Positions 1 to 28,386 of a stretch of 64,000 nucleotides of DNA are shown here, piece by piece (within the stretch, counting starts at the first letter, position 1; each line of letters begins with the position of its first letter). This stretch comes from Octopus sinensis (lineage: Eukaryota): contig NC_043022.1 of NCBI RefSeq assembly GCF_006345805.1, positions 22,506,001-22,570,000 on the forward strand, read 5' to 3'. The translations under genes were made by a program, and so were the position numbers. The notes beneath the pieces are model-generated. The model made no database searches and had not been told where the DNA came from. It saw nothing but the letters and a program-made list of their open reading frames with translations.

Positions 1-1184
1 AAAACAAGGATTTAAATGTTAATTTGGTTTTTGAGTAGGAGGAATGTTTGATAATTGCAGACTCTTACACCTCATCCATTTTCAACTGTTTCTTACTTTC
101 TTGACATTGTAAGACTGGTCAGCGAAGGGTGTTTTGTGATTTTGTTGTTTGTATGGGACAAATCACAAAAATACACAAGTTAACTTAAAAGATATTAGTT
201 ATCTTGTACAGAATTGGTTGACAGATAATAGTTGTCTTGTAGAGAATTGACTGAGAGGTACTAGTTGTTATCTTGTAGATAATAACTGTTTGATAAATGG
301 CAATTATAGAATGGAATATTTATATTCTGTATGTGTTGTCTTCTCTTGACTACATTCACCCCAAAGATTGGTTGTAATGCTGTAAGACTTAGATAAATGT
401 CTCTTTATTCATAGTAGTGAATATTGTTTGTCGTTAAATCTCTGAACTCTTTTAACTACAAGGGAGTTGGTTTCTATGTTGCTCTTATTTAATTTGCATC
501 TTAGTCAATATCAGTTATATTCAAATTGCTACCTAATATTTCTCTCCCTCACTCATGTCTGTGTCAGAGTTGAACTTGTTTTCAGCCTTGTAGACTGTGC
601 TGTCCAAGAACATGACACAAACTGTTGTGATGTGCATAACCAATAGTCCATTACTTTGCATCTTGTTTTGAGTTGTGGTTGGTCAGAATTTTCTCTGTAA
701 ACATGTTCAGCTATGTCTTTCTGCTGGTCTTATATCTTGGATTGTTTCTATTTCAAATACTAATGGTACAAGAGAAGGTTGATTCATAAGCTACAACATT
801 CACAGAAATAGATCAGTCTTCATTTTTTTTTGTTTTTTTGTTCCCCTCTGAATATTTTAGGGAATTCAATGATTACATTTTTTAAAAAATAGGTCACATG
901 TCTGATCCTTCTGACATAACTCATTTTCTTTTATTCTTCCACAAAATTTTATCTGTATTTTGCTCTGCAAATTTCTGATTCTCTGTTAGTGGCATGGCCC
1001 TTAGTATTGATTCCCAACTTAAGTTGCCAATTTAGCTTTGAGGAAAAAAAAAGAAAAGGAATGAATGTCAACTCTTCAACTTGCTATTTTTTTTTATATA
1101 TATAATACTTTTTATAATACATCTTTGATCTTGTCCCAGAATAGAATCTCCAAGAAAACAATCCCATTTAATCCCTTCTTATGT

Positions 1185-1415
1185 TTAACCCTTTAACATT
1201 TAGGTTACTCTGACAAATAATATCAAGCTTATTTTATCATATTATTTTGAATTAATCATGCATTATGTCATAGCTTGAAGATTTTGATGATCTAATTGTA
1301 TATTTTTATAATGACATTGTAGTGTAGGTATGAGAGGTTGGATCTGGCTAGTTTGAACATTAAACAAGTAGGATATTTTGGCTGGATATGGCCAGTTTAA
1401 ATGCTAAAGAGTTGA
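1185..1415 (+). mobile_element. TTAA-flanked MITE of about 225 bp (piggyBac-like ends)
   Basis: TTAACCCTTTA.CATT ... AATGCTAAAGAGTT. The family recurs through the window. Confidence 0.75.
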
Positions 1416-1901
1416 ACTGGGTATGTGGTATGACAACAGTGGTGATGATGTTGAGGAATAAGTTTTATATTTCATTGTCCTGAACGTTAAGTTTTTACTA
1501 AACTGAAACAGGTGGATACTCTTGACACATTTCTTAGACATTTTAAGAAATCTTCACCTTATTTGAACTAAGAGTTGCTAATCGATGTTTGCATATCCTG
1601 CTGCTTGTTTTTTTCCTCTTTTTTTTTTCTTTGGCTTTTCATCTTTACCCTGCCCTTGTCCCAGTGGGCATCTTATTAATGATAAAGAGGAATATATATA
1701 TCCACGTGAAACTGAAACTGCTCTTTCAATAAACACATTCGTTCATCCTGTCAGAATGATTACCTGTCTTACTCTGTATGTTTGTGCATGTTCGCATACA
1801 CCTATAAATATTATATATATATAATATCGACTTTTGAAAAAGTCTATAAATGCAAAAAATACGAATTCAATGAAAATGTTAAAAAAAAAAAAATTTGATT
1901 T

Positions 1902-2251
1902 AATAAATATAAAAAACAACAACCAAATCAATGTTAATGAAAAGGGATATTATTGGCCTGTTTACACTTTCTGTTTCTATGGCAACAACTTAGTATCACT
2001 GGCAACAGTATCAGTAGCCGAACAATTTGTATATATATTCATATACATACATATATATATATATATCAATAAAATAAAATTTTTGCCCCTCTCCCACATG
2101 ATTATTATGATTGATTATTATTATTATTTGTAAGATTAAATAAAAATAAGAAAAATAAATAAATACCTTTTTTCTTACGTAATAAAGATAAGATTTCTTA
2201 ATAAAAATAATTTGGTAAAAGTAAGCCATTTGTATCTGTTGTCTTTATTTT
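1902..2251 (+). terminator. Putative polyadenylation-signal cluster, probably intronic in WDR33
   Basis: AATAAA at 1902, 2068, 2073, 2139, 2154, 2158, 2181 and 2200, ATTAAA at 2135, then GT/T-rich tttgtatctgttgtctttattt. Preceded by about 1.9 kb of SINE-free, UTR-like sequence. Confidence 0.5.
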
Positions 2252-2444
2252 CACGACAACTCTCATACGTGTATGACTAACTTGTCCATCTGTTTCCTCT
2301 TTAGAAAGGGTTTGTCTGGCAGGTTTCAGGGGAGTGTTTCGGGTGAGGGAGGTAATAACACACATACCATTACCTTCTTTTTATAAACGACCTCACACAG
2401 GATGATTAACTGCTTTCTCCATCTACAAGTGTAGATATCTCTGC

Positions 2445-2475
<31 letters not shown>

Positions 2476-2862
2476 ATAATTCTTCATATATTTGGGTATA
2501 TCTCTTCCTGTATAATATACATCTGTTGGTGTATATTATTTCGATATGCATGTATCTATATCTGTGTGTATATATATAATATGGTTTTTGGGGTCAGTTC
2601 CTCTGTCCAGCACCTTGACTATGTATCTTTCATAATCTAATACTGACCAAAGCTTTGTGAATGAATTTAGTAAAAGAAATCTGAACGAAGTTTGTGTGAA
2701 TGTATTTATGTATATATCTATTTTCTATGTATATTGATGATGACAGCTGCGTAAAGAAGTGCTGATCTCTAATTGTAGGGAAACTTGTTGGTCAGGTTCT
2801 ACAGTATCGGTTGCAGTCAGTTGTATAGTGTAGCAATAACAGCAATTGTTGGTGTCATGGTA

Positions 2863-3092
2863 AGGCGAGCTGGCAGAAACATTAGCACGCTGGGTGAAAT
2901 GCTTAGCGGTATTTCCTCTGTTGTTACGTTCTGAGTTCAAATTCCTCCGAGGTCGACTTTGCCTTTCATCCTTTCGGGGTCGATAAATTAAGTACCAGTT
3001 ACGCATTGGCGCCGATGTAATCGACTTAATACCTATGTCTGTCCTTGTTTGTCCCCTCTATGTTTAGCCCCTTGTGGGTAATAAAGAAATAG
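2863..3092 (+). mobile_element. SINE family B (tRNA-like head and Nin/Deu-like core)
   Basis: GGCGAGCTGGCAGAA..GAGTTCAAATT head and core GGTCGACTTTGCCTTTCATCCTTTCGGGGTCGATAAATTAAGTACCAG. Other copies at 6520-6930, 10915-11400, 17619-17848, 25182-25375 and 35478-35850(-). The core assignment is from memory. Confidence 0.85.
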
Positions 3093-3896
3093 GTAATACA
3101 AGTTAGTGTGGGTGTGTAAAGAGTTGATGGGGGGGAAAGATCACTGAACAATTGCTGAACTTCAAGGTAAGGTTGCTTAGTAGGTAATATATTTTGAGAA
3201 GTTCTTTGTTCAGATGGGGCTACTTTATTTGAAGGTGTGAATTGGTGATTGTGTGAAGGAAAAGAGAGAAGTGAAAGGTAGATGGAATGAGGTAGTTAGA
3301 AAAGCCAATTTACGCTATTCAGTTCAGATCTGTTCTTTTATCTTTTACTTGTTTCAACCATTAGACTGTGGCCATGCTGGGGCACCACCTTAAAGAACTT
3401 CTTTTCGTCGAACGAATTGACCTCAGTACTTATTTTAAAACCTGGTACTTATTCTATTGATTCTTTTGTTGAACTGCTAAGTTATGGTGATGTAAACAAA
3501 CCATCACCTGTTGTCAAGCAGCAGTGAGGGACAAATACACACACACACACACACATAGATATACATTTGATGGGCTTCTTTCTTATTTCCGTCTATCAAA
3601 TTCACTCACAAGGCTTTGGTCAGCCCGTAGCTGTAGTAGAAGTCACATGCCCAAGGTGCCATGCAGTGGGACTGAACCTGGAACCATGTGGTTGTGAAGC
3701 AAGCTTCTTACCCCACAGCCATGCCTCTTGTTGATTTCTGGTTTATATTACTGAATGAGAATCATCCTTAATTATTAAGTTACTAATATTTTGGTCAGTG
3801 GCTAAAGTGGACATTCCAACTTAATGGTATGGTTACAGCCTTTATGAAGATGTTTCTTGATCAACGGAGTACATGTATGTGCAAGTAAGGTGTTCT

Positions 3897-4113
3897 TTAA
3901 CCCATTAGCTTTCAGATTATTCTATCAAATGTAATGCTTATTTATTCCAATTTTTTTGAATTAGTCATGCATTATCCCATAGGTTTTGATGATGGAATAA
4001 CTTATTTTTAGATCGACATTGTAGGATAGGTGTGTGGGGCCAGACCTGGCCAGTTTGAACATAAAACAGAATATTTTGGCTGGATATGCTCAGTTGAAAC
4101 ACTAAAAGGTTAA
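3897..4113 (+). mobile_element. TTAA MITE, same family
   Basis: TTAACCCATTAGC ... ACTAAAAGGTTAA with the shared internal sequence. Confidence 0.75.
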
Positions 4114-4369
4114 TCTGAGTTTGGGGTTTCTCGATTGTGCTGCCAAAATAGTGACCCTTCATTTATGGCATTTTACCTAATACATGACATATGCACCTAG
4201 ACATATTTATGTCTCTGGTAGAGCTGTTTGTTAGCACTAACATGTTGTTGGTCTCAGGAGTTGTTTTTTTGGTAAAAATTCAGTGTAAAGAGGGTCTAGA
4301 GTGGCTTAGACATTTATCTAGCCCCTCCTTGTGAATGGCTTTTTGGTGGTAGTCTTAAGCTGTGACAGT

Positions 4370-4596
4370 TTAACCCTTGAGTATTCAGATTACTGTCAAA
4401 AGCAATGCTTGTTTATTCACATTGTTTTGCATTAATCATACAGTATCTTTTAGCTACAAGATTTTGATGATGTGATTGCTTAGTTTCAGAATGACATTGT
4501 AGGGTAAGGTATGAGAGGTCAAATCAGGCCAGTTTGAACAAAAAACAGGTAGAATATTTTAGTCAGATATGGCTGGGTTTAAATGCTAAAGGGTTA
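4370..4596 (+). mobile_element. TTAA MITE, same family
   Basis: TTAACCCTTGAGTATT ... AATGCTAAAGGGTTA. Confidence 0.75.
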
Positions 4597-5640
4597 CAGA
4601 AGCAGATGTTCTTGTGGTCGTTCTGCTATTTTATGTAAAGGAATTTGTTTGGGATGAGTGAAAGATGTAAGTAAGTGACTTGGTCAGTCACCTTGCTACA
4701 CTTATCACAAACGCATGCAAACTAATTTTGGATGTAGATGCCTGTTGTAAAGAAGGATTAGGAGTCAAAGGTGTTGAATGTTAGACTTCCAAAACATTCA
4801 TGTATGTTATTGCAAGCAGGGTGAGACACTGGTTCCTACTGGTAGTTCAGAGGTTGACTTTGCGGATGTAATGGTTGAAATATGCTCCCTCCTCTTTCTC
4901 CTCTCCTTTGAGACAGCTGGTGCTTTGACACCACTGCATCTTGTTGGCCAGAAGTACGTCTGGGTTAATGAATCTAATGAGCCAATTAGTCTTATTTATA
5001 ACTTCAGCGAACAAAACTTTGCTGATCCATGATGATCTCTGCTAACCAACAACAAATTGAGACACACACTCACACATATTATTAGCAATAGAAGCAGTAT
5101 ATTAGTACTGAATAGCAATTTGCACATCCTACATAATGTGGTGTATGTACAGATTAATTTATATCTTAATGTAATAGATTTTCTGTAATAATTTGCAAAT
5201 ATGTTACTTATAGTGAGGTCATTACCAGTACCGCCTGACTGGGCACGTAAAAGCACCCACTACACTCTCGGAGTGGTTGGCGTTAGGAAGGGCATCCAGC
5301 TGTAGAAACTCTGCCAGATCAAGACTGGAGCCTGGTGCAGCCATCTGGTTCGCCAGCCCACAGTCAAACCGTCCAACCCATGCTAACATGGAAAGCGGAC
5401 GTTAAACGACGATGATGATAGTACTCAAGACACTCCTAGAGTATTATAATACAATGAAATAAACAACCGACACAATGTAGCTTGAAGTTAGTCCTCTTAA
5501 GTTTCGATCTTTTCATTTCTTCAGGAATAGCCCTAAGTTGGATAAGAAATGTTATTCCTAAAGAAATTACAAAAGGGAAACTTAAGTCGAATAACGTTAT
5601 GTGATGGCACCTATTATTTTTTTTTATTGCATATGTGTCC

Positions 5641-6046
5641 CTTTTACTCTTTTACTTGTTTCAGTCATTTGACTGTGGCCATGCTGGAGCACTGCCTTTA
5701 GTCGAGCAAATTGACCCCAGGACTTATTCTTTGTAAGCCTAGTACTTATTCTATTGGGCTCTTTTGCCGAACTGCTAAGTTATGGGAAGTAAACACACCA
5801 GCATCGGTTGTCAAGCGTTGTTGGAGGGACAAACACAGATACACAAGCATATACACACATACATATATACATATACATATATATGACAGGCTTCTTTTAG
5901 TTTCTGTCTACCAAATCCACTCACAAGGCTTTGGTCGGCCCAAGGCTATAGTAGAAGACACTTGCCCGAGGTACCACGCAGTGGGACCGAACCTGGAACC
6001 ATGTGGTTGGTAAGCAAGCTACTTACCACACAGCCACTCCTATGCT
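5641..6046 (-). mobile_element. SINE family A
   Basis: Reverse complement of the family A consensus, full length. Confidence 0.9.
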
Positions 6047-8199
6047 TATATATATATATGTGTGTATAAAAATCTATATATATATATATATATATATACA
6101 CATAAAAAAATTGTTTTAATATTCACTTTTCCATGCTTGCATGGGTTGGACAGAATTTGTTGAGACAGATTTTCTAGAATTGGATGCCCTTCCTGTTTCC
6201 AAGAAAGGTAATTTCCCTCTGCTCAGATATGTTTTCATGGGAGATTGGAAATGAACACCACTTGCATGTTCAGTCACTTACAACTATCATGTGATAACAA
6301 TCACTACAAGGTGATAGTAATACATGCACATACATGCACAGCAGGCTTCTTTCAGTTTCTGTTTGACCAAATCAACTCACAAGACTTTGGTTAGCTTGGG
6401 CTATTGTAGAAGACACTTGCCCAAAGTGCCATGCAGTGGGACTGAACCTGAGATCATGGAGTTGGAAAGTAAACTTCTTATCACAGCCGTGTCTGTATCC
6501 ATATATATCATCATCATTAGGGTGGCGAGCTGGCAGAATCATTAGCATGCTGGGCAAAATGCTTAGTGGTATTTTGTCTGCCGTTACGTTCTAAGTTCAA
6601 ATTCTGCCGAGGTCAACGTTGCCCTTCATCCTTTCGGGGTCATCATCATCATCGTTTAACGTCCGTTTTCCGTGCTTGCAAGGGTTAGACAGTTTGACCG
6701 GGGTCTAGGAAGTCAGGAGGCTGCACCAGGCTCCAGTCTGATCTGGCAGAATTTCTACAGCTGGATGCCCTTCCTAACACCAACCACTCCGTGAGTGTAG
6801 TGGGTGCTTTTTACGTGCCGATTAAATAAATACCAGTTATGTACTGGGGTTGATGTAATCGACTTAATCCCTTTGTCTGTCCTTGTTTGTCCCCTCTATG
6901 TTTAGCCCCATGTGGGCAATAAAGAAATACATATATATCATCATTGTTTAACATCCATCTTCCATGCATGCTTGGGTAGGATGAATGACAGGAGCAGGCC
7001 AGGTGGAAAAAGTACTGTGTCTATTTTGGCAGGGATTTTATGGCTGGATTCCTTTCTTAACACCAACCGCTCCACAGAGTGGACTCAGTGCTTTCTATGT
7101 GGCACTAGCACAGGCGAAGTTAGTTTTGTGAAAAATTTTACAGCAAGATGTCCTTCCAAATGCCAACCACATTACAGTGTGGATTGGATGCTTTTAATAT
7201 GGCACTGGCAGGGTAACCAAGTGACTCACAAGACAAGGAGTTATGAGAGGGGCAGGGCATTTGAGGAGGGGAACTTGTGTGAGAGGATGAAAGGTTAGAG
7301 TGTGACAAAGAGACAGAGACACAGATGCAGGTGTCTTGCCACAACAAAGGGGGAATAAGAGGTGATCCAGTATCAAATGATGAAAGGTTAGAGTGTAACA
7401 GAGAAGTAGAGAGGCAGAAATAGGTGTCTTGTTATAGAGGAGGTACATGGTTACCCAGCGAGAGAGAGAGGCTAGAAACAAGTGTGCTGATGTAAAGGAA
7501 ATACTTGGTTATCTAGCCTGAGGTGAAACGAGGAGAGAGAGAGAGTGTGACCAAAGGGAGAGAGAGAATAGGAAACAGCAAAAGTGTAAGAGAGAGTAAA
7601 AGAAAAATGGTGTAGTGCTAGGGTTTACTCACAAGTAACAAAAATATGAGTGTAGAACCTGGTTAGAAAAACAGGTTGGGGGTGTGGGGAGCAGGGCAGT
7701 GAGGGCAAGGAAGGAGATTGGAAAACAATCATAATTTATGAAGAGGAATTGTGAGGAAGAGAAAGATGCAGATAGAAGAGGAGTTGTAGTTCAATTTCTT
7801 AGGGCAGGGTGGGTGAGAAGTGTGTTGTTACATGTGGATGGGACCCAACTCTTCTAGCACTCAGTTTCATGGATGGGTCTTCCCTAGGACCTCATATCAC
7901 CAAACGTCTTGCTCCACTGTCATTTCCTCTATGAGCCCCCAACATCCTAAGATCAGTCTGCACCACTTTGCTAGATCAGAATAGAGCTTGGTGCAGCCTC
8001 CTGGCTTACCAGTCCCCACTCAAACCATTCAACCCATGCCAGCATGGAAAACGGACATTAAATGATGATGATGAAGAAATAACCAATTATTCATCCATTT
8101 TCTCCACTCACTATTCCTGGGAGAGTTGTTGGGGTAGCATCCCCGGGTGCTTCTTCCATAAGTCCCTATCAAAAGCAGTTGTCATTACACATTCTTGCT

Positions 8200-8400
8200 G
8201 GATTCCCAAGCATGACCAGCTGAGATTAGTTATTATCCAGCCATTTCATTCTTGGTCTCTCCAGATTGAGCCACTATTTCTCTGCATTGAGCAATCACAG
8301 CTCCGTTGCTATGGACTTGTGATAAGAATGTTGCGGGGAAGGATCACAAGACTTATTCTTCAAACCAATCCAACTTGCAGGAGACCTGGGAGTATACCTC
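8200..8400 (+). mobile_element. Degraded RTE-like LINE C-terminal fragment
   Basis: IEQSQLRCYGLVIRM...PTCRRPG resembles the QLRWxGHVxRM...PxGxRPRGRP motif. Confidence 0.45.
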
Positions 8401-8406
8401 AATTGC

Positions 8407-8768
8407 ATCATCATCATCATCATCATCATTTAGTGTCCGCTTTCCATGCTAGCATGATTTGGACGGTTCAACTGGGGTCTGGGAAGCCAGAAGGCTGCAC
8501 CAGGCCCAGTCTGATCTGGCAATGTTTCTACGGCTGGATGCCCTTCCTAACGCCAACCACTCCGTGAGCGTAGTGGGTACTTTTTACGTGCCAGACGGGG
8601 CTGGCAAACGACCACGGTTGGATGGTGCTTTTTACGTGCCACCGGCACGGGAGCCAGGCGAGGCTGGCAACGGCCATGATCGGATGGTGCTTTTTACGTG
8701 CCACCGGCACTGGTATCACAGCTACAATTTCCATTGATGTTGATCAATTTTGATTTTGATTCTGATTC
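8407..8768 (-). mobile_element. SINE family C (Meta-domain-like core, (GAT)n tail, internal tandem units of about 50 nt)
   Basis: Core GGTTGGCGTTAGGAAGGGCATCCAGC and tail GGAC..TAAA.GATGATGATG. Other copies: 5225-5420(+), 6641-6820(-), 17442-17618(+), 21563-21898(-), 24388-24610(-), 28911-29116(+), 43675-43978(-). Confidence 0.85.
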
Positions 8769-8951
8769 TGCAGTGGTTGGAACATTTAAAGAAAAATTAA
8801 ACTTTTGACTGACCTGAAAAAATACATTTTTGGAAAAATGGCACTTGGACTAGATATATTAAAGAGGTTATTCAATATGCATAGCCTCTTTAATATATCT
8901 ATATTTAGTAGTGCACCTGCACCCTGTATATAGGTGCATGTGTATGTGTAA

Positions 8952-9333
8952 TCTATTATATAAAATCTGGTCTGTCTGTATGTGTGTCTTCTAGGATCTC
9001 GGGCATCCTCCATCTGATTGCGCTCAGATTTGATATGTGGATACCGACGGTATCAGGGCGTGTGTAAGTCTTGAAAAAAACTGCAAAAATCGATTTCAGG
9101 TGAGAATGAGATCGATAAAGCCGTGGGAACGTGGATTTGCACACGCAAGTACATCAGTTGTTGCGATTGATACTATGCGTACACGAGAAAAATGCAGGGT
9201 GTCTCCGATTTAGGTTAACTCAGTGTTTCTCAAAGGGGAGGCCTATGGGACGGTTGGACAAGTTGTTTTGAGAAAATTTGGTTTAAATGTTTGACAACTC
9301 AGCACCGTCCATTGGATGGGGGTGTTTTGCTCG
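8952..9333 (+). mobile_element. Helitron-like non-autonomous element, different family
   Basis: Starts A|TCTATTATATAAAA..GTCTGTCTG. Subterminal hairpin CCGTCCATTGGATGGG and a CTCG|T end, one base from CTAG. Confidence 0.55.
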
Positions 9334-9359
9334 TATATATATATATATATTTGTGTATG

Positions 9360-9391
<32 letters not shown>

Positions 9392-9392
9392 T

Positions 9393-9759
9393 ACATATCA
9401 ATAATATGATTTAAGAACTAACATTGAATTCAGGTTAACAAACTTTATATATTCACGCTTTTACACTTCATTGCATATAGATGATACCATGACTTTCAAA
9501 TGTCAAAAAAAAACACCAGGTAAAAATCATATATAAAAAATATAAAATACACAGGACCTGCTCAGAACACATATTCTGGGCATGTTCTGTGTATTTTGTA
9601 TTGTTTTTATATATATGATTTTTACCTGGTGTTAGTATTTTTTTTTTTTTTTGACATTTGAAAGTCATGGTATCATTTATATGTAATGAAGTGTAGAAGC
9701 GTGGATATATAAAGTTCATTAACCTGAATTCAATATTTGTTTTAATATTATTGGTATGT
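9393..9759. repeat. Long fold-back inverted repeat, arms about 175 bp
   Basis: TGATACCATGACTTTCAAATGTCAAAA / TTTTGACATTTGAAAGTCATGGTATCA and TTGAATTCAGGTTAA / TTAACCTGAATTCAA. Centre at about 9570. Confidence 0.9.
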
Positions 9760-9987
9760 TTCTGGCTCAATATCATCTGAGCACTTCTCTCCTGCAGTCC
9801 TATATATATATTCATCTTATTCAATCAAAAGAAACGTACTTTATAATTTACTTCTTGTTATATATATGCATATATATAAGGAATGGCCATAATAGGACAT
9901 TCGACTCACTAGAAAGAGCAACCAAACTCCAAACCACTAATAGTTGTAATTCTGAAATGGAAAGAGAAATAAAAACGTTTACCCTTT

Positions 9988-10081
9988 CCTTTCTGGATTA
10001 TGCATAGTTTCGGCAATCTTTAGTAAATAAATTAATTAAATTAAATTTATTTACAACTGGCATGCTTCTTCAGCAAAAAAG
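9988..10081 (-). ncRNA. Degenerate type I hammerhead ribozyme motif
   Basis: Minus strand: cttttttg CTGAAGA [stem II] GAAA c tatgcata ATC cagaaagg. Two core-adjacent mismatches. Confidence 0.5.
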
Positions 10082-10210
10082 CCAAGGACTAACATATATA
10101 TATATATGCATATGTATGCATATATATATATATATGCATATATACATACACACACACACACACATATATATACATACACACACATGTATGTATATATCAT
10201 CATCATCATC

Positions 10211-10243
<33 letters not shown>

Positions 10244-11415
10244 TATATATTTATATACAAATATATATATATATTTATATACAAATATATATATGCATAT
10301 GTATTATCTTATCTTCCCAAGATGTAGTAGGTCTGTGCAGATATCTCATATACATAAATTTTTTACTCTCTAACCATTATCATACATTTTGTTTCTGATA
10401 AGCCAGATAGGCTTAACCAAGCTCTGTTGGTTCTTAGAACATTAAATTCTTTAATTTTCTTTGTACAAATTCTGATGGCTGTTGGATATGTTGTTTATCC
10501 AACAAGGGTCTATAAAATATTTTATAGTCATGTTCTTCTCTCCAAATTTCTTCCTGTGTTTTAAACCAAAAATGTTGTGGCATATGAAATGTGTCAATAA
10601 AATGTCTTATGATGTTTTAGTTGTGTCACTCTTCTGAATTCAGATACCACTCGGGTTATCTTTGTAGTTAAACTGTTTGTTGAGTTGATACATGTACCAG
10701 TTATGTATAGGGGGTTGATATCATACTCTCTCCCAGGAATTTTGTTGTCTTGTTTCTTTGTTAGAAATCGTCATTATTGAATTTAACCTTTCATCCTACC
10801 TGGGTCGATAAAAATAACATAGAAGTTACGTACTGGTCATCAGTTTAATTGACTAACGTCTCACTTCAGAAACTGCGGTCCTTGTACCTAAATTAAAAAT
10901 TATCATAATTTGCAGAAGGTGGCAACCTGGCAGAATTGGTGGCATGCCAGACACATGCTTGGCGGTATTTCATCTGTCCTTATGTTTTGAGTTTAATTTC
11001 CACCAAAGTTGACTTTGCCTTTCATCCTTTCAGGGTTGATAAATTAAGCACCAGTCAAACACTTTGTTTGTTCCTTCTTGAGCCATGCCTGGCTCATAAG
11101 GGCCAATTTCCCTGTTTCCTTGGCGTATGGGTTCCCATCTTGACGGGATGCCGGTCCGTCACAGGTGAGCTGCAAGATGCAGGAGGAAAGGAGGAAAGAG
11201 GGGGAGAAAGTTGTGGTGAAAGAATTAGCAGAAATTCGCCATTACCTTCTGCCGGAGCCACATGGAGCTTAGGTGTTTCGCTCATAAGCACACACATCGC
11301 CTGGTCTGACATGCGAACCCACGATCCCTCAACCGCGAGTCCGTTGCTCTAACCACTAGGCCATGTGCCTCCACAGTTAAACACTGGGGTCAGTGTAATG
11401 AATTTGTTCCCCACC

Positions 11416-11872
11416 ACATATGTTTCAAAGCAAGCAGAACCTCAGAAGTGGTAAATATCCAAGTGTGGTGTATACTACAGCTTACTTGTCAAGCCAAGGG
11501 TATCTTGATTAAATGAAGCATACTCTATTGCAAGGAGGTACATGTTAAAACACGGAAAATTCGATCAGAATGTGGATCACATTCTGATCGAATCTTCTGT
11601 GTGTTAACATGTACTTCCTTATTTTTTTAAGCCTTTTACCTATTCTATCAGTCTCTTTGCCAAACTGCTAAGTTATGGGAATGTAAATACACCAATTCAA
11701 TCAGATTATGGATCACATTCTGACTGAATTTCCTGTGTGTTAACATGTACCTCCTTGCAATAGAGTAAGCTTCATTTAATCAAGATACCCATGGCCTGAT
11801 GAGTAGCTTGTGGTATACACCCCACTGGGATATTTAGCACTACCAAGGTTCTACTGGCTTTGAGACATATGT
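11416..11872. repeat. Nested inverted repeat with arms of about 155 bp and an inner hairpin
   Basis: GGGTATCTTGATTAAATGAAGC / GCTTCATTTAATCAAGATACCC. Perfect 16-bp stem at 11559-11574 / 11578-11593. Confidence 0.9.
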
Positions 11873-14649
11873 AGCCCAGATCTTACCTACTCCATTCCTT
11901 AACTCTTGTATTCTTATTTGCATACCTGGCAACGGGTTGCCAATCGTGAAATATTAAAAAAAAAAAAAATTCCAGCTTATTGTACTTCAATATGAACAAA
12001 TCCACAACCTTCTGCTTCAATAAGCCATTATTGTTCTTGAAAGTTGTTTTTTATATTTACTATGGATTGCTTGAAGCTAACTTTCCTCCTACACCTCGAT
12101 CCTTGGATCTTACATACATATATATATATATGACAGGCTTCTTGGCGTTTCCATCTACCAAATTCACTCAGAAGGCCCAAGGCTATAGTAGAAGACATTT
12201 GCCCAAGGTGCCATACAGTGAGACTGAACCTGGAACCATGTGGTTGAGAAGTAAACATCTTACTACACAGCTGCACTTGCGACCAATTGCATGCACATTC
12301 ACACACATATTTGTTGCGTATTTGAGGATCTGATGTGTCTGTCCATGTCAATCTGATGCTGTTAATAGGTCATCTACACTCATTTCTCTTTTTCTTAGTG
12401 ATTACAATTTTTTTTTGTTTTGTTTACATTCATATAAACTGTAATTGTGTTTGTGTCTATAGACACCTTCCCTGTGTGTATGTATATATGGGCATAAGAA
12501 AACACAAATAGTAAATATATTCATTTATAGGGACTCACACACTGATACAAAATGTATCCCTCCTTTTTTTATTATGGTAGGGTGTGTTTTGAGGGAGATT
12601 TGACTGCTATTTCTAGCCAATCAAGATGTGACTGATTCAGAAAAGTAGTCCTGCTTGCCAAACAATCTTAGAGATATTTAAGGCAGTCAGCCCTATGTAA
12701 AAGCTTGCTAAGGTATGCTGTGTTAAATTGTTTCACATTGACATTTGGTGTAGTGTTGTCTTCATACAAAGAATAGACTAGTATTTTTGATGTTTTGTTG
12801 TGCTTTGTTACGTTGAGAGGGGTCTTAATTTTCATCCCTTTGTTTACCGGAATAACTGGTCAAAATCCTTTCTTTGTGGTGATTTGTCTTTGTGGGGTTA
12901 CCACTCGGGTATTCTCTTGGCTATTTCATTGTTGGCCAGAGCTAGACCATCATTATCTTTTATCTTTTACTTGTTTCAGTCACATTGAATTTTTAGTCAA
13001 ATGATTTGACCTCGGTACTTTTACTTTTTAAGCCTTGTACTTATTCTATCAATCTCCTTTGCTGAACCACTAAATTACAGGGGCATAAACACACTAGCAC
13101 CAGTTAGCAACTGGTGGTGACACACATACACATACACACGATAGGCTTCTTTCAGTTTCTCTCTACCAATTCCACTCACAAGGCTTTGGTCAGCCTGAGG
13201 CTATAGTAAAAGACACTTGCCCAAGATGCCATGCTGTGGGACCGGATCTAGAACCATGTGGTTGGGAAGCAAGTTTCTTACTACACATCCATAAGTTACG
13301 GGGACATAAACAAACCAGCATTGGTTGACAAGTGATGTTGGGGGACAAACACAGGCACACACATATATATATACATATATATGACGGACATCTTTCAGTT
13401 TCCATCTACCAAATCCACCCACAAGGCTTTGGTTGGCCTGTGGCTATAGTAGAAGACACTTGCCCAAGGTGCCAATCAGTGGGACTGAACCCGGAACCAT
13501 GTGGTTGGTAAGCAAGCTAATTAGCACACAGCTGCTCCTATGCCTACAATACACAAAATATTTTAATTTCTTTTAATACAATTCTTAATAATTTTTTAGC
13601 CATTGTCCATATTTGTTATACCTTCAGAACTACAAGTAATGCAAACCATTTGCTTTGAATTAAATTTTGATGAACATATGCAAAAACTTACGCACATATA
13701 TACACTGGGGCCTTGATTTGGAAAACCTTGGGTTCTTGAAGAGTGTGGAACCACCTTTTAGCCACTATTGTTCCTTACTCTAACCCAGAGTAGTAGCACC
13801 TGCCAGGGTCCTAGCAATATGTTAATTAGCTTGTTATGGAAGAAACCCCGAGCACAAACCCTCAGTGCTTTATGAATGTCTTGGGAAAGGAAAGTCTGAG
13901 GGAGTCAACCTTGGCAGCAGATTAAGGAGTGGAGTGTTGGCAGTCTGGTACCCTCTTTAATACCCTTCTGGCAACTCCAGAGTAGTAGTAGTAGTTCCAC
14001 AGCCTTGTAAAACAATTCATTTAGGAAGGGGCCACACCAATGTAAAACCTAAAGCTTGCTGGTCATTGCAACTGTCTTAGCTCGCAGAGCCACTCTGGTT
14101 GAAAGGGTGGAATCGGATTGCATGGACTGACCTAAGTGCTGCAAGAGAAACCTTGCAGTGTCAGGGATTGGAATACATATCTACTTGGGGATGTGTCACT
14201 CTTCTTTATGTTCTGGCACAAAGAAACTGCCATCATCATATATAGCTTACATTTTATCAATGGCATTTTCCAGTGATACACTTTAGATAGTGTAGATTTG
14301 GGCTATCTTTTATCTTCTTTCAGTCATTTGACTGTGGCCATGCTGGGGCACTGCCCTGAAGAATTTTTTTAGTTAACATATCGATGACAGTACTTATTCT
14401 ATCTTCCTCTTGCTGTACCGCTAAGTTATGGGGACGTAAACACACCAACACCCATTGTCAAGCGGTGGTGCTAGAGACAAACACACATATATATATGATC
14501 GGCTTCTTTCAGTTTCGACTACCAAATCAACTCACAAAACTTTGGTCAGCCCGTGGCTATAGTAGGAGACATTTGTCCAAGGTGTCACACAGCGGGACTG
14601 AACTCGGAACATGTGGTTGGGAAGCAAGCTTCTTACCACACAGTCACGC

Positions 14650-16135
14650 CTTCGCCTATATATTCGAATTTGTAAAAACAAATACCAGAGGAGTGGAGAA
14701 GAGTTTCGGATAATTCACGCACTTTCTCAAAACTGGATATTTTATCATAAAATCTAATATAAATACGTTTCAGATTCTGTATGATGTGGAGGAAAAAAAA
14801 TTGACGATAGGGTCGGATAATTCACTCAATGACTTTGTCTCCACTTTCGTTTCCCCATTTTATACGATATATATATAATGAAATTAATGTATACAGTGCT
14901 CAGGTGATGAGGTGTGTGAATTATCGCGCCTCCCCACCCAACTTTTCTTTTCCCATCAATTTCCAATATAATCGTAGTCAACATCTGAAACTTGGGTGTT
15001 GAAAATTCTATTTAAAAATGTCCATTTTTCAGAAAGTTATGAGAAACAAAATCTTGGAGTAGTGTGGGATATTGCATACATCTATCTGTAGTTATGCTCG
15101 CTTACAATACAGCGTGAATCAGAAGTACTGAAATAGACTTAGATGTTAGAAAGCCTTAGCTGTGATAAAGAACTATATAAGAATGTAAGCGTATTTCTTC
15201 TATGCCTTTGATGTACGGAAAAAAGGAGTGCGGAGACTCCTGATATTCCCGTTCTTCAGAGAAGACATTTCTTCTTTAATCAGAAGGGAAGAAATTTAAA
15301 AGAAAGGAATACTTCATTTTATCGATCTTAAAAGGACGAAAGGCAAATATGACCTCGGCGACATTTGAATTTAGAAAGAGCTGCCCAGCGCCCTCACAGC
15401 CCTTTATATGGGGCGTAACTTCGGTATAAGTACTGGATACATTTCAAGAAAGTGTTTTTTTATTTTTTATATATGATGGGGTTAGGGTTAGGAGTGGGAG
15501 AAAAGGGTTACTGTTATCTTCAGAAATGTAAACAAAGCCACTTCCGGTACTTATACCGAAGGATCGCCTTATATAGATAGATATAATGGATGGGAAATAT
15601 ACGAGTGGAGTAAGCTAATACAAATTAAAGAGGAATAACTAAACAGAAAAAAGGACTTTTTCCTTGCTTTTCTCCACACGCACATGGATAGCCATAATTC
15701 GACGTCATTTGTATTCTTCACTTCCTGTCCTGTAAGGTTATCTCCCTTGCCTTCTCTATACTTCCTCTCTTCACTTCTTTCTCGGTGTCTTCCTCTCTTC
15801 ATCCCCCCTCTCTCTCTCTCTTTACTATACTATCCACCTCTAGTTTCCTCTCCCTCCGTTCTGCCTCTGTGCACGCGCTCTCCCTATATTCTCTCACGCT
15901 CTATTAAAAATTTGTCTGTCTCTCTCTCCCTCTCTCATTCTGCTTTTGTCGTTGTTTTATCAGGCCACAGTTATATCTGTTATGTCCACACTAAAAAAAT
16001 GAAAAGTTTATGGAGGAATATATGCGATGATTACACTAGAATTCGGCCGACTGTATAATTTTGTTATATTTGCTGAAGGAAAACAAACCCAAATAGTTTG
16101 AAACCTGTTTAGGTTCAGTCGTCGTCGTCGTCGTC
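14650..16135. promoter_or_regulatory. CpG-retaining promoter-like patch inside the large intron
   Basis: Visibly more CpG than the flanks (judged by eye). ETS-like CACTTCCGG (15539) and CACTTCCTG (15719), CRE-like GACGTCA (15701), then a pyrimidine-rich tract. Confidence 0.35.
15420..15560. mobile_element. Short inverted-repeat element with internal TTAGGG motif
   Basis: TTCGGTATAAGTAC ... GGGTTAGGGTTAGG ... GTACTTATACCGAA. Confidence 0.55.
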
Positions 16136-16368
16136 TTCTTCTTCTTCTTTTCTTCTTCTTTTCTTCTTCTTCTTCTCTTCTTCTTCTTCTTCTTCTTCTT
16201 CTTCTTCTTCTTCTTTCCTTCCTTCCTTCCTTCATCTCTTTCTTTCTTTTCTTTCTTTTCTTTTCTTCTCTTTTCTTTCTTTTCCTTTCTCTTCTTTCTT
16301 TTCCTTTTCTTTTCTTTTCTTTCCTTCCTTTCTTTCCTTCATTCCTTCATTCTTTCTTTCTCCTCCTC
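16118..16368. repeat. (GTC)n(CTT)n polypyrimidine tract
   Basis: Read directly from the sequence. Confidence 0.95.
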
Positions 16369-16804
16369 TGGGTTCAGTCCCACTGTGCGGCACCTTGGGC
16401 AAGTGCCTTCTACTATGACTTCAGGCTGACCAAAGTCTTGTGAGGGGATTTGGTAGATGGAAACTGAAAGAAGCATGAAATACATTTATAATGCTGCGTG
16501 TGTGTGTGTGTCTTCTACTGTCATACCATAGCAGTTCAGCAAAAGCAGACCAATAGAATAAGTACCAGGCTTCAGAAAAACATAAGTTCTGGAGTCGATT
16601 CGTTTGACTAAAAATTCTTCATTAGACTGCATGGCTAATGACTAATGGCTGAAAGAAGTAAAAGATAAAGTGCAAAAATACATTTCAGATGGTGCAGATT
16701 ACAACTCTGTCAGAATTTAATGGGTGGGGTTGGGGACTTCTGAGGCTATGGTGATGAGCTTTGGAAAATTCACATGTGTCAGCTTTGTTTCTTCATAGCT
16801 TTCA

Positions 16805-17192
16805 GGAATGGCTGGGTGGTAAGTAGCTTGCTTACGAACCGCATGGTTCCGGGTTCAGTCCCACTGCGTGGCACCTTGGGCAAGTGTCTTCTACTATAGC
16901 CTTGGGCCGACCAAAACCATGTGAGTGGATTTGGTAGACGGAAACTGAAAGAAGCCCGTCGTATATATGTATATGTGTGTGTGTGTGTGTTTGTGCGTGT
17001 GTGTGTCCCAACATCACTTGACATCGATGCTGGTGTGTTTACGTCCCCTTAACTTAGCAGTTCAGCATAAGAGACTGATAGAATAAGTACTAAGCTTACA
17101 AAGAATAAGTCCTGGGGTCGATTTGCTCGACTAAAGGCGGTGCTCCAGCATGGCCGCACTCAAAATGACTGAAAAGAATAAAAGAGAAAAGA
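16805..17192 (+). mobile_element. tRNA-derived SINE family A, full length
   Basis: A/B-box head (TGGCTG.GTGG, GGTTCAGTCCC), internal (TA/TG)n, tail CCAGCATGGCCGCA..TGACTGAAA. Other approximate copies: 3335-3726(-), 12950-13545(-), 14305-14658(-), 16368-16670(+), 26078-26342(-), 33040-33425(+), 36757-36990(+), 41879-42440(+), 44598-44902(+). Confidence 0.9.
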
Positions 17193-18134
17193 ATAATTGT
17201 AACCTAGATATCAAAAACAAAATTTCATCGGAAAATATACAAGAAAGTTCTGAGGAAACAGTTAGGTGAAGTTGTCAGCTAAACACTGGTTATGCTCTCG
17301 TATATACTTACATACAAACACATGTACAGAGAGAGAAAGAGGGAGAGGGGGTGATTCAGTCTATCCAAGATTATTAATACTAACTACTTGAATAAATACA
17401 AAAAAGAAAACTAGTTGGAATTGAATTCATAACTGTAAAGCTGGTGGCATGTAAAAAGCACCCACTACACTCTCGGAGTGGTTGGCATTAGGAAGGGCAT
17501 CCAGCTGTAGAAACTCTGCCAGATCAAGATTGGAGCCTGGTGCAGCCATCTGGTTCGTTAGTCCTCAGTCAAATCGTACAACCCATGTTAGCATGGAAAG
17601 CGAGAGCTAAACGATGATGAGGCGAGCAGGCAGAATCGTTAGCACACCGGGCGAAATGCTTATCGGTATTTCGTCTGCCGCTACGTTCTGAGTTCAAATT
17701 CTGCCGAGGTCGACTTTGCTTTTCATCCTTTCGGGATCGATTAAATAAGTACCAGTTACGTACTGGGGTCGATATAATTGACTTAATCTGTTTGTCTGTC
17801 ATTGTTTGTCCTCTCTGTGTTTAGCCCCTTGTGGGTAGTAAAGAAAGAGATGATGATGATGGTGATGAAAGGTACCAAACTTGACGGTTTTACTGCCATG
17901 ATCATCTCTGTAACATCTTTGCTTATAATGAGATGTTAGAAATATTTTTCAAGACCTGCTCATCACAACAGAATTAAAATCCTAATGTAAAAAGCATTGC
18001 TGTTGGGTGCTGGTGCCATGTAAAAAGTACTCAGTACAATCTGTAAAGTGGTCAGTGCAGCCCCTGGCCTTGCCAATTTCTGTCAAGTGGTCCAAACCAT
18101 GCCAGCGTAGAAAATGGACTTCAAATATTGATGA

Positions 18135-18499
18135 CTAGCACTATGACCCCGCAACGCCGGGTCATAGTGCTAGTGCATGCATATACAGCTGCGTGCGTGC
18201 ACACATACACGTGAGTACTGTCCAAATCTCCGACCAATCACATACAGCTAGCTGGCATTCAATTGGTGTATCAAGTTTCGGGCATTTTGATTGGGTTTTG
18301 GATAGAAAATTCACAAAAAAGTCACTTCTATTGATTTTTTAATGGCTTTGGTGGGGTTACTGGGGAAATGTAAAGATGTGCACGACCACCCTTGGACGGT
18401 TTTGAATGACCATAGAAAGTGTGAGCCCTCTAACTGAAAAATTGTGGATTTGTATAAAGGACACGCACGCAGACAATTTGCCGTTTATATATATAGAGA
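18135..18499 (-). mobile_element. Non-autonomous Helitron, complete
   Basis: Minus strand starts A|TCTCTATATAT and ends with hairpin ACTAGCACTATGACCC..GGGTCATAGTG plus CTAG|T. A second copy lies at 26812. Confidence 0.75.
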
Positions 18500-18500
18500 T

Positions 18501-18502
<2 letters not shown>

Positions 18503-18588
<86 letters not shown>

Positions 18589-18603
18589 TCTCTCTCTCTC
18601 TCA

Positions 18604-18654
<51 letters not shown>
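18503..18654. repeat. (CT)n(CA)n microsatellite
   Basis: Read directly from the sequence. Confidence 0.97.
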
Positions 18655-18657
<3 letters not shown>

Positions 18658-19299
18658 GCCTCTCTCATGAGCTGTGATGATTTTGCCTCTCCTATCGGCA
18701 TTACCAAGGTAAGTGGAGCAGACAAGTTATTGGAGCTACACAATTCAACAGATTGTTATTATTCAAACTGCTAGAAATAACAACCAAATTTCTCAGAGAA
18801 TCATTACATGGAAGTATACATTGGATAATCTAATCAGGTGGTGGGGGATGATATGATGGTTATGACTGGAATACCTTTCTGTATATGTTTGCTTTTTTTA
18901 GGGCCAACCTAGGGCTAAATAACAACACCTGTGTTCAATACATGGTCCCTGTTCACTGTAACCTGATTATATCACCACCTCATAGAATGATGACCAGTAT
19001 TCAGTTATTTCTTTACCTTTTATTTCAAATATTGCAAGATCTTTTCTTCTGCCTTTTGACCAGCATTCTCTCCCCTACACATATGTTGGTATCTTGCCAA
19101 AATTCTCTCTCTCTCTCTCTCACCAGTTCTTTATTACTCTTACTTTCTGTTCATGCTTGTCTAACCCTGTTGCACATCCCATTTTCTTGGATCATCTCTT
19201 ATTCTCGCTGTCATTCTATGCCCCATAGGAACAAATGAGACAACGGACATGGTAAGTCATTAGTATATGGTGTTTATTTAACAGTAATATGAATTGTGT

Positions 19300-19688
19300 A
19301 GTCGCAGGAGTGGCTGTGAGGTAAGTAGCTTGCTTACCAACCACATGGTCTTGGGTTCAGTCCTACTGCATGGCCTCTTGGGCAAGTGTCTTCTACTATA
19401 GCCTTGTGAGTGGATTTGGTAGATGAAAACTGAAAGAAGCCTGTTGTATATATGTATATATATATATGAATGTATGTATGTTTGTATGTCTGTATTTGTT
19501 CTCCCAACATCGCTTGACAACCGATGGTAGTGTATTTACGCCCCCATAACTTTGTGGATCGGCATAAGAGATCGATAGAATAAGTACTAGGCTAACAAAG
19601 AATAAGTCCTGGGGTTGATTTGTTCGACTAAAGGCGGTGCTCCAGCATGGCCACAGTCAAGTGAGTGAAACAAATAAAAGAGTGAAAG
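19300..19688 (+). mobile_element. SINE family A
   Basis: Full-length match to family A. Confidence 0.9.
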
Positions 19689-19699
19689 ATATATATATA

Positions 19700-20966
19700 T
19701 AAGGTCACCCCATAAATAATGTGGTTTTTTTCAATTAAACTAAAAGTAGCAGGGGGACCGGATAAACAACCTGCATCAATTTGCTATAAAAGCAGGTAGT
19801 AATTTTACCTTGTCCTTATTTTTAGTGCAAGTTTTGAAGAGTACAGTTCAATTTTAACAGTTATTTTTCTCAAAGCTATAATCAAAGTGACAAAGGAGCA
19901 TATTCAAAATATTTTGCTTTATGAGTTCAATAAAAGCAACAATGCAACAGAAAGTGCGAGGAATATTAATGCAGTATATGGGGAATGGACAATAAGCATA
20001 AGCCAGTGTCAACAGTGGTTCCAGAAATTCTGAGCTAGAAACTACAGCGCAGAAGACAAGCCTCATTCTGGAAGATCTGTAGAGCTCAATGAGGGTGTCC
20101 TGCAAACCCTGGTAGAAGAAAAATCCCATCGTAACTGTTGAGGAACTAGCAGAGAAACGTGGATTTGGTCATTCAACCATTCATCAACACCTGCAAGCCA
20201 TTGGAAATGTCAGCAAACTGGGTCAGTGGGTTCCTTGCAAACTTTCCGAGTCTAATTGCGCGCAGGGAGTGAATGTGTGCTCTTTGCTGCCACATCTCAC
20301 GAATTAACCTTTTTTTGGACCAAATGGTGACTGGTGGCAAGAAATGGGTTCTCTATAAAAATGTTAAGTGCTGAAGACAGTAGGTAGGGAAAGGAGAAAC
20401 ACTGGCACGCCAGGCTAAAGAAGGTCTTCACTCATGTAAGGTGTTATCTGTTTGGTGAGATACGAAAGGTTTAGTTCACTTTGAACTTTGAACTTTTAAA
20501 CCCAAACCCAAATGATAACAAAGGAGATCTACTGCAAGCAGCTTGAGCGGCTTAAGTCAGTGCTAGAAGAAAAATGACCATCTTTGGTTTCCATCAGGAT
20601 AATGCTTGATCACATACAGCGAAGATGACCTTCCAAAGGCTGGAGCAGTTTGAATGCAAAACGATGCTCCACCAACCGTATTCGCTGGACATTGCTTCAT
20701 CTGATTATCATTAATTCCACAGTCTTCAAAATAATTTGGATAGAAAAAGTATGAATTCTGTAGACAAGGTCAGAAGAGTACTGGAGGTGTATTTTTTGCC
20801 ATGGATAAATGAATTTTGGAAGAGGGGCCTTGCAAGTCTCCCAGATAGATGGAAGAGTATTGCAGAAAATGAAGGAGTGTATATTTCAGATTAAAAAAGA
20901 ACTTTATCTTAATTTTGAAAAATAAAAGAAGTATAAATAAACTGCATTATCTATGGGATGACTCTA
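19700..20966 (+). mobile_element. Near full-length decayed mariner (DD34D) transposon
   Basis: Imperfect TIRs TAAGGTCACCCCATAAATAATG / CATTATCTATGGGATGACTCTA in TA context, about 1.27 kb. Broken transposase motifs: ILLYEFNK..NATESARNINAVYG, WVP, VTGGKKW (TGDEKW), HQDNA, PYSLDIASSDY (YSPDLAPSDY). Confidence 0.9.
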
Positions 20967-22339
20967 TATATATATAGATAGATATAAAAACACACACACA
21001 CAATTTGAAATCTACACTCCTGACAATATTCATTATCCAGAGAAGTGAACCCAGATTTACCTGTTCAGAGTAATTTCAGTGGGATTGCTAATACTAAGTG
21101 ATCATTGATGCTTATTACTACTTGATGTGATTAGCCATAACCTGGAACATACCTGAGAGCTATCCGGATACCTGCCTAGATAATTTATTCCCATACACTC
21201 ATCTTGTATATATATATTTGGATATACAAACAAGAGGAACAATCTTCAGTTTATTTAGAGTTTATTCAAAACTGAAGCATTACTATGTTGTTCTTCTAAA
21301 TTTCTCAAAGCATTCGTAATGGGACACTTGTGATGATGAAGTGAAGCCTGAACTGGAACAATGAATGCTAATAATACAGATGGTACTGGACAGCAAAAGT
21401 TATTTAAACTAGCCATGTCTGGCCTAAATAGTCTACCCGTTTTATGTTCAAACTGGTTAGATGTTGCCTCTCATGCAAACCCTATAATATCATTGTAAAA
21501 ATTTACAATTAACTTGCCAAAATCTCATAGTTATAAGAAAATGCATGATTAATTCATGACAACATCATCATCATCATCATCGTTTAACGTCCGTTCTCCT
21601 TGCTAGCATTGGTTGGACGGTTCGACCGGGGATCTGGGAAGCCAGAAGGCTGCACCAGGCTCCAGTCTGATCTGGCAGTGTTTCTACAGCTGGATGCCCT
21701 TCCTAATGCCAGCCACTCCGTGAGTGTAGTGGGTGCTTTTTGCATACCAGGGAAGGCTGGCAATGGCCACGATCGGATTGGTGCTTTTTACGTGTCACCG
21801 GCACAGAAGCCAGTCAAAACGGTGCTGGCATCGGCCACGTTCGGATGGCGCTTTTTACGTGTCACCGGCACGGAAGCCAGTCTAGGCGGCACTGGCAACA
21901 TGAATAAATAATCATTACATTTGAATCTGAATTCTAAAGAGTTAATGGATTGAAGAAGAAACAGATGTTATTACCAGGAACATTGCCCCAACCATAGCAA
22001 AATTGGAAACTCATTTTCCCATGATGTGACACATGTACCATTGCAGGAGAAATCAATAACTCACCCACGTTATGGCATATTCTGCTTTTAGTTTTTGTTT
22101 CAAATCTTATGGTTCTCAGTCTGAAAATGCTAGGGACATTTGGTTGCTTCATTGACACAGGTCAGTCTGTTGGATAACATCCTCCTTTTGTTTGTTCATG
22201 CTTCATTGAGCAGATCAGTTTACATCTCCTTTAATTCATCATCAACCCCAATAATGTTACTGGTATTTTATTTTATTGATCTAGAAAGGTGGGATTTGAA
22301 CTCAAAATAAATACTGCAAAACAACAACACAGATAATAA

Positions 22340-24290: not shown

Positions 24291-24706
24291 AATTGAATCG
24301 AAATACTGGGCTTTATGATTTATCCAATCCGCTGCAGTATTTATGTCCATTTTTTTGGAAATTTACCTAAAATTTATAAGATTTCAATCATCATCATCAT
24401 CGTTTAACGTCTGTTTTCCGTGCTAGCATGGGTTGGATGGTTCGACCGGGGTCTGAGAAGCCAGGAGGCTGAACCAGGCTCCAGTCTGATCTGGCAGTGT
24501 TTCTACAGCTGGATGCCCTTCCTAACACCAACCACTCCGTAAGTGTAGTGGGTGCTTTTTATGTACCACCGGCACAGGTGCCAGGGGAGGCTGGCAGTGG
24601 CCACAATCGTTAACATAGATGTATTAAAATACAGTGATAGAGGCTTTGACAATGATAAGAAAATGTTAAGAGTGGCTTTGTGTTTAAACAGTTTACATAA
24701 AAGTGT

Positions 24707-24935
24707 TTAACCCTTTAGCATTTAAACCAGCCATATCTGGCCAAAAGTATTCTGCCTGTTTTATGTTCAAACTGGCCAGATCTGGTCTCTCACACCAACC
24801 CTACAATATCGTTTTAAAAATTAACAGCTACCTCATTAAAATCTCATAGCTACAAGATAATGCAGGATTAGCTCAAATCAATGTAGATGAAAAAGCATTA
24901 ATTTTGGCAGAATAATGCAAACACTAAAGGGTTAA
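24707..24935 (-). mobile_element. TTAA MITE, same family, reverse orientation
   Basis: TTAACCCTTTAGCATT ... CACTAAAGGGTTAA. Confidence 0.8.
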
Positions 24936-28286: not shown

Positions 28287-28386
28287 TTAATGAACAATAA
28301 CTCATTTCAGCATTTAAACATTTTGTTATATGGTATTTTTCATCACTAGTTTTCTTTTCTTTTTTTTCTCTCCTTCTTCTTTTAAG

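Follow-up and report, generated by a model that had tools for sequence, protein, structure and literature searches.

A locus-restricted pair of short AT-rich sequences near two candidate 3′ ends of the WDR33 gene in Octopus sinensis

Within the window analyzed here, a stretch of 64,000 nucleotides (nt) of the Octopus sinensis genome, the WDR33 locus contains two copies of a short AT-rich sequence, copy A in a large intron and copy B downstream of the stop codon of the full-length protein. We assign a probability of about 0.47 to the reading that the pair is a one-off local copy between two WDR33 3′ ends, lying among ordinary poly(A) signals and having no sensor role. The similarity between the copies is not explained by an A+T content of 84%, and the pair is restricted to the WDR33 locus, unlike two control pairs.

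The two copies and their restriction to the WDR33 locus

Protein searches support the identification of the gene as WDR33, originally made from the letters alone: 578 protein matches were obtained and, among the 120 listed, the named ones are mostly WDR33 or polyadenylation factor subunit 2. P0002, a protein 98% identical to the locus protein whose cluster includes a named cuttlefish protein, maps five coding exons upstream of the window and eight at about 26608-38000. By eye, the frame holding the last coding exon resembles P0123/P0125 and the C-terminal part of P0002. The gene and the two copies are laid out as follows.

G000:C26:22501157-22501308, exon preceding the intron, with donor AG/GTACGC
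G000:C26:22501309-22501507 (L003:5309-5507), in-frame 65-residue V2-type tail and stop
1..26609, + strand, in-window part of the WDR33 intron, which is 31,301 nt long as a whole and begins 4.7 kb before the window
26610..26707, + strand, next WDR33 exon (FCPTDVKF...), which closes the intron (tblastn with P0002)
28386..38000, + strand, seven further WDR33 coding exons, starting at about 28386, 29263, 31063, 32034, 34415, 36444 and 37398 (tblastn with P0002)
39378..40448, + strand, open frame with the last WDR33 coding exon; its stop ends at 40448
1824..1919, + strand, copy A, AT-rich, 96 nt, with a predicted 6-bp hairpin at 1829-1844, an A13 run and AATAAA at 1902
41459..41546, + strand, copy B, 88 nt, with AATAAA at 41492 and 41528; hairpin not predicted

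Copy A begins 6515 nt into the intron, and copy B begins 1011 nt past the stop codon of full-length WDR33. The original prediction had the copies at these positions, colinear on the + strand and 39.6 kb apart, all of which the sequence bears out. A (1824-1919) and B (41459-41546) align over 98 columns with 74 matches in 86 aligned bases, and differ by 12 substitutions (7 transitions) and 4 indel events. BLAST within the window returns the match at E = 7e-13. Its alignment score of 76 is reached by none of 150 dinucleotide shuffles of A when both window strands are searched (mean 36, maximum 48), and with B masked the best score of A against the window is 37. The longest perfect runs, 15 and 13, are those expected for an even scatter of 16 events (P = 0.59 and 0.44, respectively), giving no block-wise conservation signal between the copies. 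Such evenly scattered differences are as in neutral decay, and favor the local copy.

A GU-rich 20-mer upstream of each core is also alignable (1775-1795 on the A side, 41429-41449 on the B side); in sets of 300, 0-5 shuffles and 0-8 real segments reach its score, depending on the scoring scheme. Beyond the core, homology is limited to this tract, and nothing downstream of the copies can be aligned. This abrupt stop argues for a local copy, although a short core between flanks that cannot be aligned could also be what was kept of an older, longer duplication. A larger decayed duplication was considered and rejected: downstream similarity in a global alignment failed against both shuffles and real segments, and a match far downstream is a TA repeat. 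A remnant of the last coding exon was sought in the intron, where one 21-nt low-complexity match was all that appeared.

No other copy had been seen in the window, and this holds not only there but also in the 204 kb around it. Genome copy number, originally proposed as a check, was addressed by a DNA search of the 2.72-Gb genome that skips common words and needs seeds, so that very old copies may escape; it returned two candidates per copy, namely A and B themselves. Five pattern searches of the genome gave 1, 0, 0, 3 and 1 matches outside A/B, against 1, 13, 0, 1 and 0 in the corresponding controls. By comparison, 40 local two-copy pairs in the 204 kb around the gene pass the same filter as A/B, and both of the two pairs (of the other 39) that were checked genome-wide are dispersed repeats, with 206 and 867 candidates. 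The pair resembles the dispersed SINE- or MITE-like repeats of the octopus genome in being short, AT-rich and near microsatellites, which adjoin both copies, and differs from them in having two copies where the control pairs have hundreds of candidates. A dispersed repeat of the SINE or MITE kind was rejected on the basis of the two candidates per copy together with pattern counts at or near those of controls, and the same locus restriction speaks for a local copy.

A rarer source could be imagined, in which a rare, old mobile element inserted twice in the gene beside microsatellites and decayed to the pieces now seen as A and B. The position of both copies against microsatellites, the repeat density of the region with its 40 local pairs, and the ease with which a seeded search that skips common words can miss old copies are all compatible with such an origin, as are four partial look-alikes elsewhere in the genome (L091, L092, L095 and L101). 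When aligned, L091, L092 and L095 score 34-42, within the shuffle range (maximum 48) and far below the 76 of the A-B match, and were rejected as further copies; L101 was discounted on inspection by eye. Neither terminal repeats nor a target duplication was found around A or B, in keeping with the original observation, and no clean poly(A) tail or target-site duplication was seen at the copies by eye. With pattern counts outside A/B also at or near controls, we regard a mobile element as improbable. The surroundings of L095 are single-copy apart from 42 nt of another repeat. The best look-alike of the 5′ 29 nt of the element lies on the minus strand at L019:810-710 (G000:C9536), with a score at chance level; an exon about 700 nt downstream of it appears to resemble the start of beta-ureidopropionase.

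Other repeat features of the window include a 339-nt inverted pair with 94% identity (18162-18500 and 26811-27148) that flanks the exon at 26610-26707 and that, in the pre-mRNA, could loop out this exon or be edited. Downstream of WDR33 are broken open frames that look by eye like transposable element remnants (47879-48677, 55693-56191 and 58965-60209), and a 100-base assembly gap occupies 62652-62751.

Both copies had been described as opening with a hairpin. The hairpin is predicted in A, with pair probabilities of 0.72-1.00, and not in B, where they are 0.01-0.08 and the 5′ piece has a minimum free energy of 0.0. Neither whole copy folds better than its shuffles (z-scores of −0.52 for A and +1.52 for B), and one stem base has been lost in B without a compensating change. 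A conserved hairpin was therefore rejected, since B does not fold and the loss is uncompensated; a stem broken in this manner is in line with a local copy. The 6-bp stem and 4-nt loop of A recall the histone 3′ stem-loop and other 3′-UTR hairpins in Rfam, from which the pair differs in lacking an Rfam match over A and a stem in B. None of the 75 rows of the Rfam search reached the gathering score, and none overlapped A up to E = 10; those over B are to microRNA families and intron RNAs, weak matches in repeat-rich sequence that fall far short of the gathering scores. A known RNA family was accordingly rejected as the identity of the element. Separately, a TG repeat and a CA repeat are predicted to pair into a long stem whose loop contains B (41421-41570; −47.5 kcal/mol, z −4.0). 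This stem is a possible substrate for A-to-I editing, and could also hide or expose nearby AATAAA signals.

Evidence for a V2-type isoform

In human, the WDR33 V2 isoform retains intron 6, carries two WD repeats and an intron-encoded 118-residue membrane domain, and regulates STING (PMC11019558, PMC11445923, PMC11331416, as far as the text available from these papers goes). V2 homologs have been reported in Drosophila and Nematostella, with no mollusc named among them (excerpts of PMC11019558). The human V2 level is reported to depend on CFIm25 and on slow splicing of intron 6, with several weak sites used stochastically, and the available part of that study describes no autoregulation by WDR33 (PMC11445923).

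Octopus WDR33 shows three features of a V2-type isoform, namely the junction, the hydrophobic tail, and spliced exons that continue into the intron. Read-through at AG/GT gives the junction KEPVRGI-R/Y, which follows the second WD repeat. We infer that the intron holding A is the equivalent of human intron 6 from this protein junction and from L066, an apparently mammal-like locus with an open tail of 122 residues at the same junction (118 as published for human). The octopus tail is 65 residues long, and its best 19-residue Kyte-Doolittle mean, a measure of hydropathy only, is 2.23. Among 13 WDR33 intron read-throughs, 4 of which are long enough to score, it is the longest, and no other exceeds 2. 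Over the first 42 residues, 28 are identical to the cuttlefish-like protein P0127, including 19 of the first 21. P0127 and P0135, also cuttlefish-like, contain the whole N-terminus plus tail and derive from contigs of 1565 and 1587 nt. Conservation of the tail may reflect RNA-level constraint near the donor in addition to protein constraint. In organism B, which is 2.6% diverged, the first listed change falls about 170 bases into the intron.

A protein search directed at the junction, and thus biased towards intron-tailed forms, yielded 48 proteins (the query plus 47 of 50 matches), of which 21 have a full N-terminus and an intron-type tail; hydropathy is at least 1.8 in 15 of these 21. At 37 metagenome loci with an intron at this position, drawn from 68 fetched WDR33 loci that include many near-duplicates, the tail scores at least 2.0 in 15 cases, scores below this in 8, and is shorter than 19 residues in 14. 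The short tails belong to L054-L056, L074-L078, L049, L069, L080, L081, L084 and L046, the last of which stops at a contig end. From such sequences, some lineages seem to lack a membrane-tailed V2 or to make it differently. No octopus V2 protein turned up in the protein collection, where P0135 was the one match among 24 candidates and where the last-exon protein is also absent; this is a weak negative.

The octopus arrangement is like human V2 in its protein junction, its in-frame hydrophobic intron tail, its inclusion of the first WD repeats only, and its several candidate poly(A) signals. It differs in the length of the intron (1668 nt in human, 31.3 kb in octopus) and of the tail (118 versus 65 residues), and the likely V2 3′ UTR of octopus, at least 6.5 kb and repeat-rich, is unlike that of human V2. 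As far as the accessible human V2 literature extends, no sequence common to the V1 and V2 3′ ends is described in it. Our literature search, mainly of titles and abstracts with few subscription papers, found no description of a mollusc V2 or of a sequence common to both WDR33 3′ ends, and within the same scope no paper describing the A/B element itself.

Poly(A) signals and RNA-like contigs at the two ends

Several candidate poly(A) sites surround the two copies.

1775..1795, + strand, GU-rich lead of copy A and possible downstream element for a proximal poly(A) site whose AATAAA is at 1728
2068..2255, + strand, AATAAA cluster (seven, plus one ATTAAA), with U/GU-rich sequence after 2228; by sequence the strongest candidate for a V2-type mRNA end
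41409..41458, + strand, two AATAAA (41409, 41413) and then a TG-rich tract; possible proximal poly(A) site, immediately before copy B
41661..41715, + strand, ATTAAA and a U/GU-rich tract, about 115 nt past copy B; possible distal poly(A) site for full-length mRNA

An AATAAA precedes each copy, at 1728 for A and at 41409 and 41413 for B. The cluster at 2068..2255 has no homology to the sequence after B. Copy A had been described as heading an AATAAA cluster in the large upstream intron; it does lie in that intron, but 150-290 nt upstream of the signals at 2068-2205 rather than at their head. A contains five canonical or variant hexamers and B contains four, where 73 AT-rich 90-mers from the window average 1.6; the enrichment is mild, and the two counts are not independent. 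The U fraction 10-60 nt past the terminal AATAAA is 0.28 for A and 0.12 for B, versus 0.34-0.48 for eight other AATAAA near A, and a U/GU-rich downstream element after the terminal AATAAA is absent in both copies.

Contigs of 4 of 24 sequencing runs were compared with L020:300-8100, which extends from 5.0 kb before the window to window position 2800; the contigs are unstranded. We call a run RNA-like if its intron contig starts 30 bases ahead of the donor, as expected where spliced and read-through forms part. The RNA-like runs are X1 and X8 (both RNA by guess) and X15 (kind unrecorded), from three studies and two organisms. All three share a 31-mer branch at the donor as the starting point of their intron contig, whereas X20, a much larger and DNA-like run, spans the exon without a branch there. 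Record 25 of X8 has 408 unaligned bases before the exon and ends at the donor. Pieces of X1 tile the intron as far as window position 2023, with gaps at repeats. One of them, record 8 (1380-2023, no substitutions), bridges all of A, extends 116 nt beyond the AATAAA of A, and stops at the same TA microsatellite as the DNA-like contig. Among the pieces listed, no RNA-like piece lies beyond 2023, while X20 has 2080-2432; this absence is a weak hint of an end in the AATAAA cluster at 2068-2205. A piece from X15 stops at 1762, or 29 nt beyond the AATAAA at 1728, which at its low depth may be chance. No poly(A) loose end occurs among the contig ends listed. A further X1 piece, record 5 (L020:4045-5202), is 1636 nt long with 1158 nt aligned and has 8 substitutions, against 0-3 in other X1 pieces, possibly reflecting an insertion allele, or else a haplotype that has diverged in this part of the intron.

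Premature 3′-end formation very likely does occur in the intron holding A, given the position of the known V2, the conserved hydrophobic tail and the RNA-like contig cover. To this extent the original prediction of an intronic 3′ end is upheld. Cleavage just after the AATAAA of A as the main end is not supported, because the contig runs 116 nt further and no U/GU-rich downstream element follows; this signal is not the only end, and minor use of it would be invisible in contigs. Bases 1-2023 are likely the distal 3′ UTR of a V2-type mRNA, and A most likely lies near the end of such an mRNA.

The same coverage might instead represent unspliced pre-mRNA or oligo-dT capture on the A13 run, in which case no mature V2-type mRNA would reach A, and A would be a neutral intronic copy. 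This would suit evidence that consists of contigs only, with no run recorded as RNA, no poly(A) loose end among those listed, and a compared stretch that ends at window position 2800. Moreover, with contigs as short as 1565 and 1587 nt behind the cuttlefish-like V2 proteins, V2 could end much closer to the donor. We nevertheless judge it very improbable in view of the donor branch at the same 31-mer in all three RNA-like runs and not in the DNA-like run, the lack of RNA-like pieces beyond 2023 among those listed while the DNA-like run has 2080-2432, and a conserved tail that is the longest of the 13 read-throughs. A function on the minus strand deserves still less credence. There, both copies show a T-rich tract ending in TTTATAG and might form a duplicated splice acceptor of an antisense transcript, but the putative exons would at once enter TA or CA microsatellites, and no joint at A appears among the joints listed for the unstranded contigs.

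Origin and possible roles of the pair

If the pair is a local copy, its history may be pictured as follows. By analogy with human WDR33, slow splicing of the intron would let cleavage and polyadenylation win in some transcripts, giving a two-WD-repeat membrane protein. Some 95-145 nt of 3′-end DNA, comprising the GU tract and the core, would have been copied from one end to the other, in either direction, through template switching or because a short cDNA made from the 3′ end of the gene itself inserted into A/T-rich DNA. The copies would now be ordinary 3′-UTR or tandem poly(A)-signal sequence without special structure, and cleavage would more likely occur at the flanking AATAAA-plus-GU sites (1728 or 2181-2205 in the intron; 41409-41413 or 41661 at the terminus) than at the core AATAAA. 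The divergence between A and B, 14%, is about 5 times the 2.6% of organism B, so on sequence grounds the copying event is likely to be much younger than the V2 isoform.

A local copy is further favored by the terminal AATAAAs, which lack U-rich downstream sequence, by the passage of X1 record 8 through A, and by the V2 context of the intron (our data; available text of PMC11019558 and PMC11445923). The cDNA route finds no direct support at the copies, where neither a target-site duplication nor a clean poly(A) tail was seen by eye. The main weakness of a local copy is one of position: we estimate at about 1 in 100 the chance that a random 95-nt copy in a 60-kb gene would fall so close to the likely V2 end (about 300 nt or less), unless insertion or retention favors such places. 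For this reason we retain, as a tentative alternative that we hold distinctly possible, a selected core common to the V1 and V2-type mRNAs, acting through shared binding of a protein or small RNA or as a poly(A) auxiliary element and linking the making, keeping or localization of the two.

Sequence from organism B bears on both readings. Relative to the octopus intron, 94 of 3561 bases are changed (2.6%), and window positions 1619-1862, with 1 change in 244 (binomial 0.011, Fisher 0.03), are the least changed of seven intron pieces. This dip is a point for selection and against a neutral local copy. It takes in only the first 39 nt of A, and the seven pieces together are not significantly uneven (P = 0.10), both of which detract from selection. 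That both copies lie in ends rich in poly(A) signals, each after an AATAAA and a homologous GU tract, and that A lies inside RNA-like contigs would suit a selected element as well. On the other side, the copies share no structure and no clustering of identity, and the core has no full copy elsewhere in the genome, so that it is not a motif of a gene group. A metagenome pattern scan for the element gave 0 matches, and the best BLAST rows for 68 WDR33 loci from metagenome contigs, none of them recognizably cephalopod, contained no A/B-like stretch beyond AT-rich noise.

A precedent for selection on intronic 3′ ends exists in the conserved autoregulatory sites of CSTF3 (PMC3708835) and PCF11 (PMC6458999). 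These are likewise 3′-processing factor genes with tandem AATAAA in a large intron, and, in the portions of the two papers at hand, their sites are conserved across vertebrates and respond to factor level. They differ from octopus WDR33, whose intron encodes a conserved protein tail, in yielding no apparent or no detected protein, and in the same portions the intronic site is not described as a copy of the terminal one. The stochastic use of several weak sites by human V2, as given in the available text of PMC11445923, also weighs against a selected element. One form of such an element, the WDR33 feedback sensor raised in the original prediction, we consider decidedly improbable. A combined history, in which the gene copied its own mRNA 3′ end into the intron and the 95-nt core has since been kept as a common control of V1, the nuclear poly(A)-signal reader, and V2, a STING-regulator-like membrane protein, is unlikely though worth stating.

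Cephalopods would join the animals with V2-type WDR33, with a tail conserved between octopus and cuttlefish-like sequence. Octopus cleavage-site data exist in PMC9699675, according to the accessible part of that paper. Should the core prove to be under selection, one element would be common to two alternative 3′ ends of a central polyadenylation gene, and coupling of V1 and V2 output, a question left open by the human studies, would be directly testable. If the pair is ordinary, it would be a small natural example of an intronic 3′ end gaining sequence from the gene's own terminus.
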